64,000 nt of DNA from the NCBI GenBank assembly GCA_048939015.1, contig JBHLPW010000005.1, positions 9,632 through 73,631 on the forward strand, given 5' to 3'. This document shows, piece after piece, positions 11,775 through 25,618 of the stretch; position 1 is the stretch's first letter; every line of letters starts with the position of its first letter. The notes beneath the pieces were generated by a model, which made no database searches, had not been told where the DNA came from, and saw only the letters and a list, made by a program, of their open reading frames with translations. Source of the DNA: Promethearchaeota archaeon (lineage in GTDB: Archaea; Asgardarchaeota; Lokiarchaeia; Sigyniarchaeales; SOKP01). The position numbers and the translations under genes are program-made.

Positions 11775-12893
11775 ATGTCAAGATTTGCATATTGGTGGTA
11801 TTTTATGACTCCGGAAAGACCTTTATCAAAAAAGAAAATAGCGCAGCAAACAATCTCCATTTCACCGGCACTTAAGGATAAAATAGAGAAATATGTTTAT
11901 GAAAATAATAAACGGCATCCAAATGATAAGAGGTTCAAAAGTATTTCAAGATTTTACAACTTTGTTATGGAACGAGTAATGGAAATTTTTGAAAAAGGTA
12001 AAACTCTTGATGATTTTGAAACATTTTTAGATGGTTACCTTAGAAGCTTTTTCGATAATCTCTCTTTTAATGCGATAATTCCCTATTATGAAAATGCGAT
12101 AAAAACAAATCGGTATGAGAGCCCAACACTTGAGAAAAATACGTTTTTCTTTTTTACCCTTAGGAGATTATATACCTCCCATATTAATCCTTATGATATT
12201 AAAAGTATAAATACATTTTTCAGCAGAGTTAGAAATTACATTTTTTCAAATAAGCTTACAAAAGAATTTAGGTTAGATTTATTTACTGGAAAAGGAAGAC
12301 ATGATTTAACTGGAGTCTTTGAACAAGCAGGATTGTATAAAAACCTATCTTTTGAAACCTATAAATATACCGCCGCTTTCTTTGGATTATTGGGTAATAA
12401 AATAACAGATTTTTTATACTCTAGAAAAGATGATTATTGTAGATTTGATTTAAAAGCCACAGAATTGTTTTTCAAGAAAGATTTGGCAAAAAGAGAAAGA
12501 ATCAAACTAATGAATCATAATCTTTCTTATTTTATCAATTATAATAGAGTAATTGAGGATAAAGATTATTACCTATGGATGAAAATGGCAGTTGATAAAC
12601 AAATCTTAATCACTTTTGCCAGTGAAGAAGTTAAAGAAAAATGGGTAAATCTTATAGAAAGTGAAATTGAGAAATTTGGAGAAAAAGAAGATTACCCTCT
12701 TAACCTGCTAAGATTCTTTGAAAAATTACATTGGATTGAAATCAAAAGTGAAAAAGACCTTAGTTTTCAATTTAGATTATCAGATTCAAAATACATAGAT
12801 GAAAGAGAATTTTTATTGGAAACTCTTTCTAAAAAATTTCAAGTCTCTTGTGAAGACGAGAAATATTACTTAAAAAAAATCATGAAACTCTAA
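11775..12893 (+). CDS. Hypothetical regulator with N-terminal RHH-like domain (paralog of 13255-14328); real start may be 11805
   Basis: QQTISISPALK...RFKSISRFYNFVME gives a beta-helix-helix pattern; SD GGTGG precedes the Met at 11805. Confidence 0.7.
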   Translation: MSRFAYWWYFMTPERPLSKKKIAQQTISISPALKDKIEKYVYENNKRHPNDKRFKSISRFYNFVMERVMEIFEKGKTLDDFETFLDGYLRSFFDNLSFNAIIPYYENAIKTNRYESPTLEKNTFFFFTLRRLYTSHINPYDIKSINTFFSRVRNYIFSNKLTKEFRLDLFTGKGRHDLTGVFEQAGLYKNLSFETYKYTAAFFGLLGNKITDFLYSRKDDYCRFDLKATELFFKKDLAKRERIKLMNHNLSYFINYNRVIEDKDYYLWMKMAVDKQILITFASEEVKEKWVNLIESEIEKFGEKEDYPLNLLRFFEKLHWIEIKSEKDLSFQFRLSDSKYIDEREFLLETLSKKFQVSCEDEKYYLKKIMKL

Positions 12894-12901
12894 TTCCCAA
12901 T

Positions 12902-12930
12902 AAAAAAAAAAAGGAGAATTCGTCCTCCTT
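12902..12930 (-). terminator. Hairpin + poly-T terminator on the minus strand
   Basis: AAGGAGGA-CGAA-TTCTCCTT stem followed by a long T run. Confidence 0.55.
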
Positions 12931-13254
12931 AACCCCGCCTTTTTTCCCTCCTTTTACCTTTGTGGCAAGGGCCTCCTGTCATTCCCTTGATCTTTATCTT
13001 AAAAAATTGCCCAATTATAATTTTTTATAAGTATATTTAAAGCTTAATATTAGGTATCATTTTTGTTAAATTAAATATTAAATAACCCTAAAAAGAAGAT
13101 TCATAGAATCTAAAAAGTTTTTATGTGATTAAGAGAAAATGTATCTTGTAAAAGCTATCTAAGTTCTAACTTTCAATTATCCTTAGATATAAACTTACTT
13201 AATTAATCTTTTCAACTAAAATAGATTTAAAATCTATTTCAAATTTAAAGTAAC

Positions 13255-14328
13255 ATGACTAAGAAAAAATACCTTTCGAATAAGAAAACTGCCCAACAAA
13301 CGATTTCAATATCACCCGCACTTAAAGAATGGATCCAAAGATACGTAAATGTACAGTACAGAGAAAATCCAAAGGATGAGAGATTTAAAAGCATCTCCAG
13401 TTTTTATAATAGTGTCATGGAAAATGTTTTAAGAACATTTGATATGGGCAAAACTCTTGATGACTTTGAAAGGGTAGAAGATAAGGAAGTTAGAGATTTC
13501 TTTGAACCTTTCACCTTTAAAGCAACAATTCCTCTCTATGAAATGGTATCAGAAAGTAATCGATTTACTCCTTTTTCTTTTGAATTTACAACTAGGTTTT
13601 TACTTCGATATACAAATTGGTTACGAAAAAATTTTAAACCTGAAAATTTTAAAGGATTGAGTATTCTTTTTGAAAGGATAAGAACTCGATATGGAACTAG
13701 TAACGTTTCTACTGATATGATTTTGGAAGTCATTCCCCGTGAAAAAAACCAACCTATTCGAGGAATATTAGAATTTATAGGAAAACAAAAAAACCTTCAT
13801 TTTGAAAACTGTAAATACTTTGCTGCAATCTTTGGAATGCTAGGAGCAAAAGTAACAGAATTTATATATTCACCTAAAGATTATTATTGCAGACTTGACT
13901 TAGTTGAGACAGAGCTTCTATTTAAAAAGGAACTATTTAAAAAAGAAAGGATCCAACTTCTGAAAGAAAATGTAAGATTTATTATAAATTATGATAGAAT
14001 GCTTGATGATAAAGACAAATATCTCTGGATGAAATTGGCAGAGGATAATGATTTGTTTATAAGCTTTAAAAATGAAAGTGCTTTTATTAAATGGATTAAA
14101 ATTATCGAGGAAGATATACAAAAATTTGGTACGCCTGAAGAATTTCTTAAAAAAATCTTACTGTTTTTTGAAAAAATACATTGGATTAGAATTGAGAGTT
14201 TAAAGGATCAATTATTTCAAATCGAGCAACATATAGAAAAAAATCCTAATCAAAAGCAGTTACTAACTGATTATCTTTCTCAACATGCCCAAATCTCCCA
14301 AAAAGACAAGATTTATTCTTTACAGTGA
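13255..14328 (+). CDS. Hypothetical regulator with N-terminal RHH-like domain (paralog of 11775-12893)
   Basis: Shares QQTISISPALK, RFKSIS, GKTLDDFE, KNLxFE, DYCRxDL, YLWMK and FFEKxHWI motifs with the upstream gene. Confidence 0.75.
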   Translation: MTKKKYLSNKKTAQQTISISPALKEWIQRYVNVQYRENPKDERFKSISSFYNSVMENVLRTFDMGKTLDDFERVEDKEVRDFFEPFTFKATIPLYEMVSESNRFTPFSFEFTTRFLLRYTNWLRKNFKPENFKGLSILFERIRTRYGTSNVSTDMILEVIPREKNQPIRGILEFIGKQKNLHFENCKYFAAIFGMLGAKVTEFIYSPKDYYCRLDLVETELLFKKELFKKERIQLLKENVRFIINYDRMLDDKDKYLWMKLAEDNDLFISFKNESAFIKWIKIIEEDIQKFGTPEEFLKKILLFFEKIHWIRIESLKDQLFQIEQHIEKNPNQKQLLTDYLSQHAQISQKDKIYSLQ

Positions 14329-21176: not shown

Positions 21177-22073
21177 TTAGTTTAATGATGCATTAAAATT
21201 GAAGGAGATATTTTGTAAAAATTCCTTATATCTTGAGCGAAGAGTCACTTCTGTGACCCCTATTACTCTTGATATATCCTTTTGACTTACTTTTTGATTC
21301 TTTAATTTAGATACTAAATATATCGAACCTGCACACAACCCTTTAGGATCTTTACCACATATGGAAGTGTTTTCAATAAAGTTTTTTAATACTTGTATTG
21401 CTTCTTTTTCAATATTAATATCTAATCCTAAATCTGCGCAATAACGTGGTATAAGGGATACAGGATCAATATGAGGTGATTTTAAGTTCAATTCTCTTAC
21501 TAAAATCTTATAGCATTTCTTCACAATATTATCATTTATTGAAGCTTCTTCTAAGATTTCTTGAAGAGTAATAGGAACCCTTTCTTGTTTGCATACATAA
21601 TATGCACATGCTGCAATCATACCATTTATAGATCTGCCCCTTAAGAGATTCTTTTTAAATACTTCTTTATAAAGCCGAACAGCTGACTTTTTTACTCGCT
21701 CTGGAAAATTTAAATTGCCACCAATTCTTTTTAATTCAGTTATAGCAATAAGCATATTACGTTTTTCCCATGATAAATGAGTATTCCATTTTGCTGCCCT
21801 TCTTAAATCAGGATTTTTAATTTTTGTCCTATCAATAATTGTACTTAGGCCTATATCAGGCATTAAAATTGAAATTGGACAACCAGTTCTTTCTTTTTTA
21901 TCTTTCTCTTGTTTTGAATAAGCCCTTATACCACTGTGAGTCACATCAACTGCCTTTTCGGATACAACCAAACCGCAATGTTGACAAACAATCTCCCCTC
22001 TTTGATGAATATCAATCGTAGAGCCGCCACATTCGGGACAAAAGCCTGTTTGTGTTGTAATTTCGACAACCAT
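21177..22073 (-). CDS. tfb: Transcription initiation factor IIB (TFB)
   Basis: CPECG...CQHCG Zn-ribbon, two cyclin repeats, GRSI, GKDP, VTEVTLRSRY. Confidence 0.95.
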   Translation of the reverse strand: MVVEITTQTGFCPECGGSTIDIHQRGEIVCQHCGLVVSEKAVDVTHSGIRAYSKQEKDKKERTGCPISILMPDIGLSTIIDRTKIKNPDLRRAAKWNTHLSWEKRNMLIAITELKRIGGNLNFPERVKKSAVRLYKEVFKKNLLRGRSINGMIAACAYYVCKQERVPITLQEILEEASINDNIVKKCYKILVRELNLKSPHIDPVSLIPRYCADLGLDINIEKEAIQVLKNFIENTSICGKDPKGLCAGSIYLVSKLKNQKVSQKDISRVIGVTEVTLRSRYKEFLQNISFNFNASLN

Positions 22074-22135
22074 CTATATTTACCCTTAACCTATTATCAA
22101 AAATTTATTTTTTTTTATTTTTTTACACACACATA

Positions 22136-22158
22136 ACAACAAATATAATATTTGTTGT
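22136..22158. promoter_or_regulatory. Perfect 11-bp inverted repeat, putative operator upstream of tfb
   Basis: ACAACAAATAT-A-ATATTTGTTGT; extra TTTGTTGT copies at 22171-22178 and 22288-22295. Confidence 0.55.
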
Positions 22159-22551
22159 AAAAAACTAATTTTTGTTGTTATAATAATAAATGTCGTTTGC
22201 ATATTTAAATGTTATTGTGCTAACAAACTATGTGCAAAAAAACTTGAAGATGGGTTTATTTGTATAAAAAAACATCTAGGTAAAAAATTTGTTGTAATGT
22301 ATTTTTAGCACAAATTATATCTTTTTCAATTTAAAAATGACATAATACCCTCATATATTATTTTTTTAATATTTGATACAAGAATTTGTGTACAAATTTT
22401 GAATTATTTCCTACAAAATTTTTTAACACACTTTTTTAAGAACCTTCAAAATTGATCATGACTCGGACTAATGATGTTTTCACAATAATTAAATAATAGT
22501 TCTTTTATTATGGTTGCAAGCAAAATTTAGTTAGAAATTTGTGGTGCAAAA

Positions 22552-23487
22552 ATCACCGATCCTGAGAAAAAAGAGGAAAAACCTGCTGCAAATAAGAATA
22601 ATGATGAGACTTATATGAGTGAAGAAGATAATTCAATTAAGAAAACACCAGAAATGGAGAGATATGAAAAGGAGACTCAACGATATGCGATCTGGCGAGG
22701 AACTATTACCGAAGGTTTTAGAAAGTGGCAAAAAGGAGAGAAAATTTATCAACGAGACAAAGAACGAATATCTTTATATGTTTCTGAAGAAACTAAAAAT
22801 AAATGGAAGTCTTACATTGAAAATGATGGAGACCTTACAATTTCAAAACTTATCCGAGAAGCAGTTGCAGCATTTATAGAGAGTGAGACGAATGGCTCTC
22901 AGTATAATCTTTCAAAATTAAATCCTCAAACAATTTCAAATATTTCTCACACTTTAAAAGAACCTCTTACTTCGATTAAAGGGTATTCACAGTTATTACT
23001 AGAGAACTATCAGGATAAATTAAATACTCAAGTGTTTGACACTGTAAAAAATATCTTTGAGCAAAGCCTTCTTCTTGAGAAGAAAATAATCAGTATTCTC
23101 GATAATATGAAGGTCGAATCAGAATACGATGTTTTATTAATCGAAGATGATTTGGCGACAATTCGGTTAATAACAAGTTATTTTGATAGTAAAGGGTTCA
23201 AATGTAAAGGTGTTGTCAGTGGATCAAAAGGTTTGGAGGAATTAGGAAATACAATCCCAAAATTGATTTTGTTAGATATTATTTTACCTGATTTAAGCGG
23301 ATATGATATTTGCAAAACGATAAAGTCTGATAAGGAATGGGCAAATATACCAATCTTTTTCTTGACAGCTATTGCAGGGGCAGAAGTAAAAAAGAATTTA
23401 AAAGAAACTAAGGCTGATGGATTCATTTTGAAACCATTTAATTTTTCTGATTTTGAAGTAATTTTTGATATTTTGAATAAAAACTAA
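22552..23487 (+). CDS. RHH + HisKA(DHp) + receiver domain regulator; probable ATC start at 22552 (first ATG 22615)
   Basis: RISLYVSEETK..W...TISKLIREAV (RHH); SHTLKEPLTSIKGYSQLL (DHp); IEDD, LLD, LTA, KPF (REC); no HATPase domain. Confidence 0.85.
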   Translation: MTDPEKKEEKPAANKNNDETYMSEEDNSIKKTPEMERYEKETQRYAIWRGTITEGFRKWQKGEKIYQRDKERISLYVSEETKNKWKSYIENDGDLTISKLIREAVAAFIESETNGSQYNLSKLNPQTISNISHTLKEPLTSIKGYSQLLLENYQDKLNTQVFDTVKNIFEQSLLLEKKIISILDNMKVESEYDVLLIEDDLATIRLITSYFDSKGFKCKGVVSGSKGLEELGNTIPKLILLDIILPDLSGYDICKTIKSDKEWANIPIFFLTAIAGAEVKKNLKETKADGFILKPFNFSDFEVIFDILNKN

Positions 23488-23792
23488 TTCTAATTGAATA
23501 ACTTTTAGGAACACTTTTTATTTATAATTTAATTACCATATTCAAAAATATTTGGACATAATCCAGATAACATAATAACTTTATAATAAAAAACATTTAT
23601 AAATGGATAAAAAACTATACAATATTGTAAATAATGGTAAATTCTAGAGGGTTTTTTATTAAAAAAATAGAAAGAATCAAAATACTGGAGGTTTCGTTAT
23701 CAATTTAGCTATTTATTTTTTATAACTAAAAACTCTTTAATACTATAATTTTTACAAAATACTATATATATGATAAAAAAAGGGGAACACCA

Positions 23793-24758
23793 GTGTCTAG
23801 CAATAAAAAAAATTCTGAAAAAAAGGAAAATAAAAAGAATAATGATGATAAATCTGAAAAAAGATTTATGACTGATGAAGAAATCGATAATCTTGATTTA
23901 AACAGTAAGCAAGCAGAAGACTTGATGAAACAATATGAGGATGAAACTGAAAAATATGCTAAATGGCGTGGTTCCATTACTGAAGGATTTAAGAAGTGGT
24001 TAAAAGGAGAAAAAATCTATGATAGAGATAAAGAAAGAATTTCATTATATGTGTCTGAGGAAACAAAGCAGCAATGGCAAGATTTTAAAGATTCTCATGA
24101 ATATTCAACGATTTCAGCTTTAATAAGGGATAGTGTTGACTTTTTTATAGATCAAAAATCAGATGAGATAGGAGAGAGTTTGCGTAAAATGGATGAGAAA
24201 ACGATTTCTAATATTTCTCATGCATTAAAAGAACCACTTACATCTATAAAAGGATTTAGTCAGCTCCTTCTTGAAAATTATGGAGATGAATTGAATGAAG
24301 AAATCCTGCTAACCGTTAAAAATATTTTTGATCAGAGCTTACTCCTTGAAAACAAAATAATTAACGTCTTGGATAATATTGTTTCTGAAGAACCCCACTC
24401 TCAGTATGATATTCTTCTTATTGAAGACGATTTAGCAACCATCCGATTGCTTACAAGTTATTTCGAAAGTAAAGGATATGTATGCAAAGGAGTTGTAAGT
24501 GGAACCAAGGGTTTAGAGGAATTAAGGGGAGGGATTCCAAGACTTATTCTGTTAGATATCATACTTCCTGATATCTCTGGTTATGAGATTTGCAGAATGA
24601 TTAAGAATGATAAACGATATCAGGATCTTCCTATATATTTGCTAACCGCTATACCAGGTTCTGAAGTTGAGAAGAAAATGAGTGAAACTAAAGCTGATGG
24701 TTATATTTTAAAACCATTTGATTTTTCGGATTTTGAGGTAGTTTTTCAATTTTTATAA
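23793..24758 (+). CDS. RHH + HisKA(DHp) + receiver domain regulator, paralog (GTG start)
   Basis: Same architecture: RISLYVSEETK, SHALKEPLTSIKGFSQLL, IEDD/LLD/LTA/KPF. Confidence 0.88.
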   Translation: MSSNKKNSEKKENKKNNDDKSEKRFMTDEEIDNLDLNSKQAEDLMKQYEDETEKYAKWRGSITEGFKKWLKGEKIYDRDKERISLYVSEETKQQWQDFKDSHEYSTISALIRDSVDFFIDQKSDEIGESLRKMDEKTISNISHALKEPLTSIKGFSQLLLENYGDELNEEILLTVKNIFDQSLLLENKIINVLDNIVSEEPHSQYDILLIEDDLATIRLLTSYFESKGYVCKGVVSGTKGLEELRGGIPRLILLDIILPDISGYEICRMIKNDKRYQDLPIYLLTAIPGSEVEKKMSETKADGYILKPFDFSDFEVVFQFL

Positions 24759-24760
24759 TG

Positions 24761-25618
24761 TTAAAAATTTATATTTGAACTATTTTTAATCCAAAAACCT
24801 TGAGTTGGTTTTTCAATTTTCCATCTCTTACAATAATTTATAATTGTTGTATCTGATACTCCATATAGTTTAGCTATTTTAGATATGGGTATTTCCCATA
24901 CCAATTTTTCAAGTTTTTCTTTACCAATTACTAATTTTCTTTTATTCCCATGTTTCCATGCATTTTTTCTTATTTTCTCAACTCTTTCTTCTTTCGATGA
25001 AAACTTAATTCTCTTTCTTGGCAGGCTATACTTATAATTATCCATCATTTCACTGAATAATTCACTCCCTAAATACAAATCAAATGCATGTCCGAAACCT
25101 GATTTCTCATGAATTTTTGTATGTAAATTAAAAAACTCTTTGATTTGTTGTAAGAATTTTTTACTACCTGATGTAATCTTTGAAGTCCCTTGTGTCCCAT
25201 CGCCATCAAAATATCCCAAAAGAAAAGCTAGATAAAAAGCTCTCGTATTCAATTTTGGCAATTCAATTACCTTTGATTTTCGTAAACACACACCCTTTGA
25301 AATTAAATCACTTAAAAGTTTTTTATTTCCTAGACGAATTCTAACTGTATTAGAATCTTTATGATATGATTTATATTTCTTTTCAAATCTTATAGTCTTA
25401 CAAAATGTCTCAATAAGATACTCATCTTTCTTATTAATTTCAATTTTGAACCTATATCTATCGATACCTCGCTTATCTACAGTTATTCCTCCATCTGCAT
25501 ATATAAATCCCAACCAATATGCTTTTTCTTTAGAATTTATAACTTCAAAGTAATTTTCTTTAAGATTGGGATGCAGCTTTGATCTTCTCCTATCTTTTTT
25601 AGCTTCTTCATTAATCAT
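24761..25618 (-). CDS. Free-standing double-motif LAGLIDADG homing endonuclease-like protein with C-terminal HTH
   Basis: AYWLGFIYADG and AFLLGYFDGDG; C-terminal ISKIAKLYGVSDTTIINYC; no intein splice motifs seen. Confidence 0.85.
   Translation of the reverse strand: MINEEAKKDRRRSKLHPNLKENYFEVINSKEKAYWLGFIYADGGITVDKRGIDRYRFKIEINKKDEYLIETFCKTIRFEKKYKSYHKDSNTVRIRLGNKKLLSDLISKGVCLRKSKVIELPKLNTRAFYLAFLLGYFDGDGTQGTSKITSGSKKFLQQIKEFFNLHTKIHEKSGFGHAFDLYLGSELFSEMMDNYKYSLPRKRIKFSSKEERVEKIRKNAWKHGNKRKLVIGKEKLEKLVWEIPISKIAKLYGVSDTTIINYCKRWKIEKPTQGFWIKNSSNINF

Follow-up and report, generated by a model that had tools for sequence, protein, structure and literature searches.

The window analyzed here, a 64,000-nt stretch of contig JBHLPW010000005.1 from a Promethearchaeota archaeon, carries two tandem genes, par1 and par2, whose products appear to join a ribbon-helix-helix (RHH) DNA-binding domain to a receiver by way of a kinase-type dimerization and histidine phosphotransfer (DHp) hairpin. 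The source is an Asgard metagenome-assembled genome (MAG) of 4.86 Mb that is 95% complete and whose close relatives are labeled Promethearchaeota or Lokiarchaeia at NCBI, and the window DNA is low in GC (26 to 34%). The upstream paralog, par1 (22615 to 23487, plus strand), encodes 290 amino acids from the ATG at 22615, and the downstream paralog, par2 (23793 to 24758, plus strand), encodes 321 amino acids from the GTG at 23793. The two lie in the same orientation and their products are 65% identical across 285 residues (E of 8e-135), as expected of the tandem paralogs proposed by an initial annotation made from the sequence alone. That annotation had also placed a start at 22552, which we rejected, as the in-frame codon there is ATC and not ATG, GTG, or TTG; the par1 open reading frame (ORF) opens past a TAG at 22528 to 22530, and ATG 22615 is its first start codon. 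Because Met14 of par1 (ATG 22654) and Met45 of par2 (ATG 23925) are kept in all orthologues and the residues before them are not, translation may truly begin at the conserved methionines and yield proteins of about 277 residues each.

Each protein is built of four consecutive parts, all encoded on the plus strand. An N-terminal module (22654 to 22749, residues 14 to 45, in par1; 23925 to 24020, residues 45 to 76, in par2, where it was placed by alignment) is followed by the putative RHH domain, which in par1 spans 22756 to 22890 (residues 48 to 92), with the strand KERISLYV and helices at residues 58 to 68 and 76 to 92, and in par2 spans 24027 to 24161 (residues 79 to 123), with an identical β-strand. 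The DHp hairpin comes next, at 22924 to 23103 in par1 (residues 104 to 163; H-box ISHTLKEP, with His112 at 22948 to 22950) and at 24195 to 24374 in par2 (residues 135 to 194; H-box ISHALKEP, with His143 at 24219 to 24221). Finally, the receiver occupies 23128 to 23478 in par1 (residues 172 to 288; phosphoacceptor Asp221 at 23275 to 23277) and 24411 to 24731 in par2 (residues 207 to 313; phosphoacceptor Asp255 at 24555 to 24557).

Two of the four parts were recognized directly by Pfam in both copies. HisKA (PF00512) scored 33.3 bits in par1 and 32.4 bits in par2 (cutoff of 26.9), and the helices of the par1 hairpin were also present in its structural model, such that the helix pair and its retained histidine (SHTLKEP and SHALKEP) were as first described. 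Response_reg (PF00072) scored 67.4 bits (1.5e-18) and 67.9 bits (1.1e-18), respectively (cutoff of 30.2). The receiver had been called intact, and indeed its active site is complete in both copies: the E/D-D acidic residues, Asp221 (Asp255 in par2), Thr251, Lys273, and the K-P-F motif are all present, and Asp178, Asp221, and Lys273 were invariant in 52 sequences. In the PDB, the par1 receiver matched RR468, DivK, and Spo0F, with Foldseek TM of 0.9 to RR468 and DivK, and a Foldseek search with the whole protein returned receiver matches only, with nothing for the N-terminal half. Scanning both proteins against NCBIfam likewise added receiver-level matches only.

What the proteins lack is equally telling of their layout. 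The Pfam scan found no HATPase_c match in par1 or par2, and the receiver begins 9 residues past DHp helix 2, where a histidine kinase has its ATPase domain. Among longer proteins, a search returned relatives of two forms (533 and 798 amino acids), both with HisKA and a receiver and both without HATPase. Thus, the four-part layout without an ATPase domain held in Pfam content and in fold, and no longer form fused to HATPase turned up. A split form made of the N-terminal module and RHH alone was also considered and rejected: the search among shorter proteins gave mostly contig-end fragments, and therefore no support for a free-standing version.

An AlphaFold2 model of par1 built with 52 homologues had a mean pLDDT of 88 and consists of a helix, β-hairpin, and helix (residues 12 to 39), an extended segment (51 to 57), helices at 58 to 68 and 76 to 92, and a helical hairpin (104 to 131 and 138 to 163), ahead of the receiver. 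How the domains are placed relative to one another is uncertain, however, as the pTM of the monomer was 0.49. The RHH domain predicted by the initial annotation fell below threshold in Pfam, where RHH_1 (best E of 0.015, seen in 9 of 31 members) and DUF6290 (E of 0.021) were both under the cutoff, and a sequence-profile search of the PDB returned six RHH chains weakly (E of 0.28 to 1.2). Support for the domain came instead from fold comparison and from the dimer model. When a model of the N-terminal fragment was compared by VIA-align with 48,161 solved chains, RHH proteins made up most of the 40 best matches, aligned over residues 46 to 100 with Z of 5.8 to 3.9 (43 to 54 residues; rmsd of 2 to 5.7 Å). 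These were ParD2, PrpA, TacA, MazE, TraM, PutA, CopA, NikR, omega, SvtR, AmrZ, Arc, and ORF56, repressors and antitoxins among them. Modest Z values would be expected of a 45-residue domain, and the list of matches is very uniform. The fragment folded alone was mediocre (monomer pLDDT of 75), with the ribbon strand drawn as a helix, such that the RHH call draws on the helix-helix part of this fragment model and on the dimer model, and the comparison hardly covered the N-terminal module (residues 1 to 32 of the fragment). Moreover, conservation among the tandem copies extends to the presumptive DNA-reading strand, ERISLYV; its outward-facing Arg51 and Tyr55 are conserved, with Ser53 nearly so, a pattern that fits DNA reading.

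When par1 was modeled as a homodimer, the ipSAE was 0.44, compared with 0.00 for the best control, the separate runs shared at least 80% of their contacts, and the pLDDT of the partner was at least 74. Among proteins of solved structure, 20 of 30 pairs and 1 of 23 single chains reach that score. The confident interface comprises residues 48 to 58, 60 to 67, and 76 to 92 of the RHH domain together with residues 110 to 161, which form a four-helix bundle from two DHp hairpins, and both the receiver and the N-terminal module fall outside it in the model. Residues 48 to 58 of the two chains meet in the interface, the N-terminal strand pairing characteristic of RHH dimers, in a prediction that is like complexes that have been solved. 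Because both kinds of dimer have solved precedents, the result speaks for likeness and not for binding. The initial annotation had suggested that the DHp was reused for dimerization, and the model agrees, in that the DHp is predicted to dimerize jointly with the RHH domain.

How the receivers might be charged is suggested by the genes that surround the rest of the family. Besides the window pair, the genome encodes eight other copies, referred to here as the non-window paralogs, and a gene for a PAS-HisKA-HATPase kinase lies within 3 kb of seven of the eight, directly adjacent and convergent in five. The paralog at G000:C22:13660-14508, for instance, has its convergent kinase gene at 12299-13627; the genome encodes roughly 40 kinases in all. 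Six of the eight also abut a gene for a methyl-accepting chemotaxis protein (MCP), of which there are 21 in the genome, and a CheA/CheW locus is present elsewhere in it. Similar neighborhoods were found in other genomes (20 loci in 17 genomes), where a kinase gene lies within 4 kb at 14 loci (10 of them convergent, tail to tail), an MCP gene is present at 6, and one or both are present at 18. Thus, the family conforms to the usual pattern of response regulators paired with cognate kinases, and the notion of a phosphorylation-controlled transcription factor, already put forward in the initial annotation, gains weight since canonical kinase genes adjoin the other paralogs. That 6 of the 21 MCP genes abut a regulator of this family further suggests that chemoreceptor expression is signal controlled. 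We note that complete three-gene modules (MCP, RHH-DHp-receiver regulator, and PAS-HisKA-HATPase kinase) occur at loci L013, L014, L016, L017, L019, and L020, on contigs C22, C99, C51, C101, and C112, with the kinase gene convergent with the regulator at four of the six.

We consider it reasonably probable that par1 and par2 are RHH response-regulator transcription factors controlled by aspartate phosphorylation and that the DHp serves as their dimer spine. From the domain content, conservation, gene neighborhoods, and predicted fold and dimer, we infer DNA binding, a phosphorylation switch, and likely targets, as follows. Each protein would be a constitutive dimer held at two levels, by the β-ribbon of the RHH, which would read DNA, and by the four-helix bundle of the DHp, which would have been inherited from a HisKA kinase with the ATPase domain lost. 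The receiver would follow directly after DHp helix 2, in the place that the ATPase domain has in a kinase. Phosphorylation of the receiver aspartate (D221 in par1 and D255 in par2) by a histidine kinase would change how the receiver packs on the stalk of DHp and RHH and, in turn, would change operator binding or higher-order assembly. The DHp would act chiefly as a spine for dimerization and coupling, and its histidine would be nonessential. For most paralogs, the kinase would be the product of the adjacent convergent gene or of one a few kilobases away, and the adjacent MCP gene would be the likely target. For the window pair, the kinase would be encoded elsewhere, and the likeliest targets would be the pair's own promoters and the divergent gene for transcription factor B (tfb). 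The DNA-reading strand is identical in par1 and par2, and receiver helix 1 nearly so; the operators that the two recognize, and the kinase that they answer to, are probably the same.

The family appears to be confined to a narrow lineage and is abundant within it. With E of ≤1e-35 as the threshold, members turned up in a single GTDB family, where 63 of 68 genomes have them, whereas none of 232 genomes sampled from 29 other families of the phylum did. When 185,579 species genomes were scanned with a pattern, 158 loci were confirmed, and the 80 loci listed were all from Asgard MAGs; NCBI labels on some matches (Thor-, Hod-, Hermod-, and Odinarchaeota) conflict with the GTDB tally of one family, and we gave the tally weight. 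In this genome, the 10 paralogs account for 10 of 33 receiver domains, and a scan of six other multidomain receiver proteins found no Pfam-recognizable DNA-binding domain in them. Thus, the family is probably the main transcriptional output of two-component signaling in the lineage.

Almost all genomes of the GTDB family have the tandem pair itself. By maximum likelihood, 27 proteins from such pairs grouped into one clade with short branches (support of 97/96), and the upstream copies formed a clade nested within it (support of 100/99), with one genus having a separate pair of its own. The nesting indicates that the duplication predates most genera, and the pair belongs to an old and slowly evolving orphan clade in which the acidic residue that follows the DHp histidine (position H+1) has been lost. 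One explanation for such long side-by-side retention is that par1 and par2 form an obligate heterodimer, as the initial annotation had floated, and mixed dimers would be sterically possible, since the copies share the RHH strand KERISLYVSEETK, a near-identical DHp core, and near-identical receiver helix 1. The DHp positions predicted to contact themselves (121, 140, 144, and 147), however, show no complementary or asymmetric changes (one copy has I/V and the other I/I/V/I), and the homodimer model already passes, with nothing to favor the mixed pair over it. Moreover, other family members are single genes, and the 305-nt spacer between par1 and par2 contains a TATA-like block of its own, which suggests that the two are transcribed separately. 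We conclude that an obligate heterodimer is unlikely.

Whether the DHp does chemistry can be judged from its H-box. The family was grouped into 98 clusters at 78% identity, and the H-box could be aligned in 91 of them. Histidine is present in 77 clusters and is replaced by Tyr in 8, Phe in 4, Leu in 1, and Asn in 1, such that about 15% (14 of 91) have lost it, whereas hardly any of the 98 clusters depart from the receiver Asp, Thr/Ser, and Lys, which are kept in all 14 that lack the histidine. Thus, the receiver aspartate appears to be the indispensable site, and the DHp histidine appears useful but dispensable. Lysine at H+3 is nearly fixed (89 of 91 clusters), and at H+4, 68 clusters have Glu, 10 have Gln, 2 have Asn, and none has Thr. 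In histidine kinases, an acidic residue at H+1 is needed for kinase activity, and Thr or Asn at H+4 is needed for phosphatase activity (Willett and Kirby 2012, PMC3510030). The window proteins have neither, with Thr (par1) or Ala (par2) at H+1 and Glu at H+4, and the canonical DHp phosphatase has probably been lost throughout the family. The two substitutions, both pointed out in the initial annotation, differ in their reach: Glu at H+4 is a trait of the whole family, but Thr or Ala at H+1 is restricted to the tandem clade, where the residue is Ala, or Thr or Ser in the upstream copy of this genus, and the kinase-linked clades have Asp or Glu. Neighboring kinases read SHELKTPLTS where the regulators read SHELKEPLTS (consensus SH[DE]LKEP), which indicates that the regulator DHp came from the same local stock of kinases. 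We also observed one regulator clade with Tyr at the histidine position (YYLKQK, SYELKQK, and YYFKQR) at loci L072 (G174:C41) and L074 (G300:C136), convergent to kinase-like genes whose tblastn scores were below those found elsewhere.

The H-box bears on a second alternative, in which the proteins are phosphorelay nodes and the DHp histidine is a working phosphoacceptor. The proteins would then be stations like Spo0B or ChpT, or parts of a split hybrid kinase, that also bind DNA. The phosphoryl group would reach the histidine by one of two routes: back from the receiver aspartate of the same protein or its partner or, once the DHp has heterodimerized with that of a partner kinase, from the ATPase domain of that kinase acting in trans. 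Consistent with a relay, most clusters keep both the histidine and the lysine at H+3, the kinase-linked clades keep the acidic H+1, and DHp helix 1 is near-identical to that of the neighboring kinases. The loss of histidine in 14 of 91 clusters that still have the receiver aspartate argues, however, against an essential relay role, particularly as some of those members (L072 and L074) lie beside kinase genes, and the window pair lacks the H+1 acid. Spo0B and ChpT have a kinase-derived DHp-like hairpin and have lost ATP-dependent autophosphorylation. They retain a degenerate ATPase-like domain and an essential histidine and have no receiver or DNA-binding domain, and par1 and par2 are the converse: nothing lies between the DHp and the receiver, no pseudo-ATPase domain of the Spo0B or ChpT kind is present, and the histidine is replaceable. 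Finally, no receiver-only protein is encoded beside the pair to pass the phosphoryl group on. A relay node is, in our estimation, improbable.

Upstream of par1, the divergent neighbor is tfb (21177 to 22073, minus strand), and when 14 loci of other genomes were compared for synteny by tblastn, 10 showed this arrangement of tfb and the pair. In most genera, the gene order is GatE, GatD, L2, divergent TFB, par1, par2, and a JAB-like gene. The genome encodes ten TFB paralogs; the one adjacent to par1 is 80 to 94% identical to its counterparts elsewhere, and its closest paralog within the genome is 59% identical. In the window, par2 and the JAB-like gene are separated by a LAGLIDADG-like ORF (24761 to 25618, minus strand) with visible LGFIYADGG and LLGYFDGDG motifs. 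Of 14 syntenic loci, 13 had no counterpart of this ORF, and one had a partial 46% match elsewhere; the ORF is likely a recent mobile insertion.

The region between tfb and par1 (22074 to 22614) contains several conserved elements. Alignment of five loci from the same genus showed a TATA-like block at about 22472 to 22510, some 100 to 140 nt upstream of par1, and same-genus alignment showed another such block in the spacer upstream of par2. On the tfb side, a TATTTAAAT element lies 125 to 170 nt from the tfb start in 12 of 12 syntenic loci (about 130 nt here). Heptamers of the form TTGTTGT/ACAACAA were found 30 to 120 nt upstream of tfb in 8 of the 12 loci, compared with 1.5% of AT-rich control windows, and in those 8 they are located between the TATTTAAAT element and tfb. 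The TATTTAAAT element and the heptamers are candidate promoter and operator elements for tfb, and the recurrent heptamer, together with the conserved ribbon residues (R51, S53, and Y55), is indirect evidence that par1 and par2 may bind DNA sequence specifically. Two palindromes fared less well: TGTTA-N-TAACA beside the TATTTAAAT element was kept in two of five same-genus loci and was rejected as a conserved operator, and the perfect palindrome TACAATATTGTA upstream of par2 (23618 to 23629) was retained in part within the genus but not outside it, which leaves it a weak candidate. The conserved cis element next to the pair, the conservation of the ribbon residues, the absence of a toxin-like neighbor, and the redundancy of a second dimerization element beside the DHp make it very hard to credit that the proteins are instead kinase decoys or phosphate sinks, in which the DHp and receiver dock kinases or drain phosphoryl groups and the RHH merely dimerizes, even though the DHp is kinase-like and the receiver resembles the single-domain regulators RR468, DivK, and Spo0F.

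Several points weigh against the phosphorylation-controlled transcription factor that we favor. No experiment exists on any member of the family, and no kinase was identified for the window pair. The RHH call is a predicted fold with modest Z scores, where Z of <8 in VIA-align can mean a common arrangement, and the Pfam RHH matches are subthreshold. The dimer model may have passed because the predictor remembers solved DHp and RHH dimers, and the monomer model, with its low pTM, leaves it uncertain where the receiver sits against the DHp. The Glu fixed at H+4 throughout the family has no explanation. Moreover, retention of the histidine in 85% of clusters and of the acidic H+1 in the kinase-linked clades hints at a chemical role of the DHp beyond dimerization. 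Finally, the loci with heptamers are related, and as six of the eight come from one genus, they amount to roughly three independent observations.

The design had been called undescribed, but it has been named before. A census of archaeal signal transduction proteins lists Arc-type RHH-HisKA-REC proteins, four genes, in Lokiarchaeum sp. GC14_75 (Galperin, Makarova, Wolf, and Koonin 2018, J Bacteriol, PMC5847659), and these share with par1 and par2 both domain order and lineage. The mention takes up one sentence of the census, which gives no structure, neighborhood, phylogeny, or function; relative to that sentence, the N-terminal module, the kinase and MCP neighborhoods, the linkage to tfb, and the H-box pattern are additions. 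Two proteins from a marine-sediment metagenome (LCGC14_...) are 80 to 81% identical to par1, and a full-text literature search returned no further paper that treats the RHH-HisKA-REC design. The same census discusses phosphoacceptor or phosphatase roles for "HisKA, no HATPase" proteins of Archaeoglobi and Methanomicrobia. As described there, those proteins resemble par1 and par2 in having a conserved histidine and no ATPase domain, but they have N-terminal sensors, end with HisKA, and carry neither RHH nor receiver.

Comparison with better-known systems places the pair among response regulators. Like regulators of the OmpR/PhoB type, par1 and par2 combine a receiver whose acceptor site is intact with a DNA-binding domain, and most family members have a cognate HisKA kinase gene next door. 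Unlike in OmpR/PhoB, the order is reversed, with the DNA-binding domain N-terminal and the receiver C-terminal, the DNA-binding domain is a predicted RHH and not a winged helix or helix-turn-helix, and a kinase-derived DHp lies between output and receiver, such that dimerization is built in rather than driven by receiver phosphorylation. With HK853, EnvZ, and hybrid kinases, the pair shares the DHp hairpin with its His, Lys/Arg at H+3, Pro at H+5, and predicted four-helix bundle. The family differs from these kinases in H+4 (Glu or Gln rather than the Thr or Asn of the phosphatases), and par1 and par2 further differ in H+1 (Thr or Ala) and in having no ATPase domain and, thus, no autokinase. 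We conclude that par1 and par2 are a catalogued but unstudied variant of the response-regulator transcription factor.

A related arrangement may exist in split form. At two loci (L089:33-1627 and, on contig C46 of G000, L012:96-2046), an ORF that matches HATPase is followed directly by an ORF of 275 to 281 amino acids, whose C-terminal receiver and preceding 60 or so residues match the DHp-receiver part of the regulators with 29 to 30% identity. These loci may be a split, or simply a different, kinase-regulator arrangement.

The N-terminal module forms a separable unit of the protein. In par1, its core reads ETxxYAIWRGxITEGFxKW and is modeled as a helix, β-hairpin, and helix with pLDDT of about 90 (residues 11 to 40), and the conserved motif that had been noticed in the two window proteins was upheld by 14 invariant columns in 31 sequences drawn from several genera. 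The module, about 30 residues long with the core ETGKxAIWRGxxTxxFKKW, is present in six of the ten paralogs. The same genome also has it at the C terminus of RNA polymerase A' (973 amino acids), at the N terminus of an ABC ATPase, and at the C terminus of a leucine-rich repeat (LRR) protein; copies on other proteins were mapped to G000:C65:9083-9163 (the A' tail), G000:C20:11761-11859, and G000:C35:19821-19904, and further copies were mapped to L175:3575-3676, L176:3551-3655, L177:1973-2077, and L178:1374-1478. The sister GTDB family, in which the regulators are absent, has copies at the tail of A', on aIF2-gamma, and on an L13e extension. In a class-level sample, the module was present in 74 of 75 and 8 of 8 genomes of these two families, in one of two genomes of a third, and in none of five genomes of two further families.

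What the module does may be related to nucleic acids or to the polymerase. A single copy, fused to L13e, matched the N-terminal hybrid-binding domain of RNase H1 (PF01693) with an E of 5.6e-4 and 20.5 bits (cutoff of 21), and the module matched the hybrid-binding structures 1qhk and 3bsu in the PDB with E of 0.44 and 0.84 over 17 to 23 residues. PF01693 was absent, however, from the Pfam families at E of ≤1 for the N-terminal segments of 31 regulators, and an ESM Atlas look-up of the module returned no usable match. Thus, the likeness to RNase H1 is weak and serves as a lead only, and the module is a candidate nucleic-acid clamp or docking tag. We speculate that it might be a docking tag that touches the A' tail or a partner of the polymerase and that, in combination with the linkage to tfb, a two-component signal might thereby reprogram basal transcription; we regard this as a long shot. 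In a refinement of the docking-tag idea, the kinase-linked paralogs would be charged on the DHp histidine in trans by their partner kinase.

DNA-binding outputs are seldom found on archaeal response regulators. Asgard archaea are the closest prokaryotic relatives of eukaryotes, and to our knowledge, the route by which they pass from sensing to transcription is not known. What makes the family of interest is a kinase hairpin that appears to be reused inside a regulator, genetic linkage to tfb and to chemoreceptor genes, and a module held in common with RNA polymerase. The reused hairpin, with its family-specific change at the phosphatase position, would allow the role of a DHp that has no ATPase domain to be tested cleanly. 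Ultimately, both the conserved position of the pair next to tfb and the occurrence of its N-terminal module on RNA polymerase A' suggest a connection, open to testing, between two-component signaling and the basal transcription apparatus.

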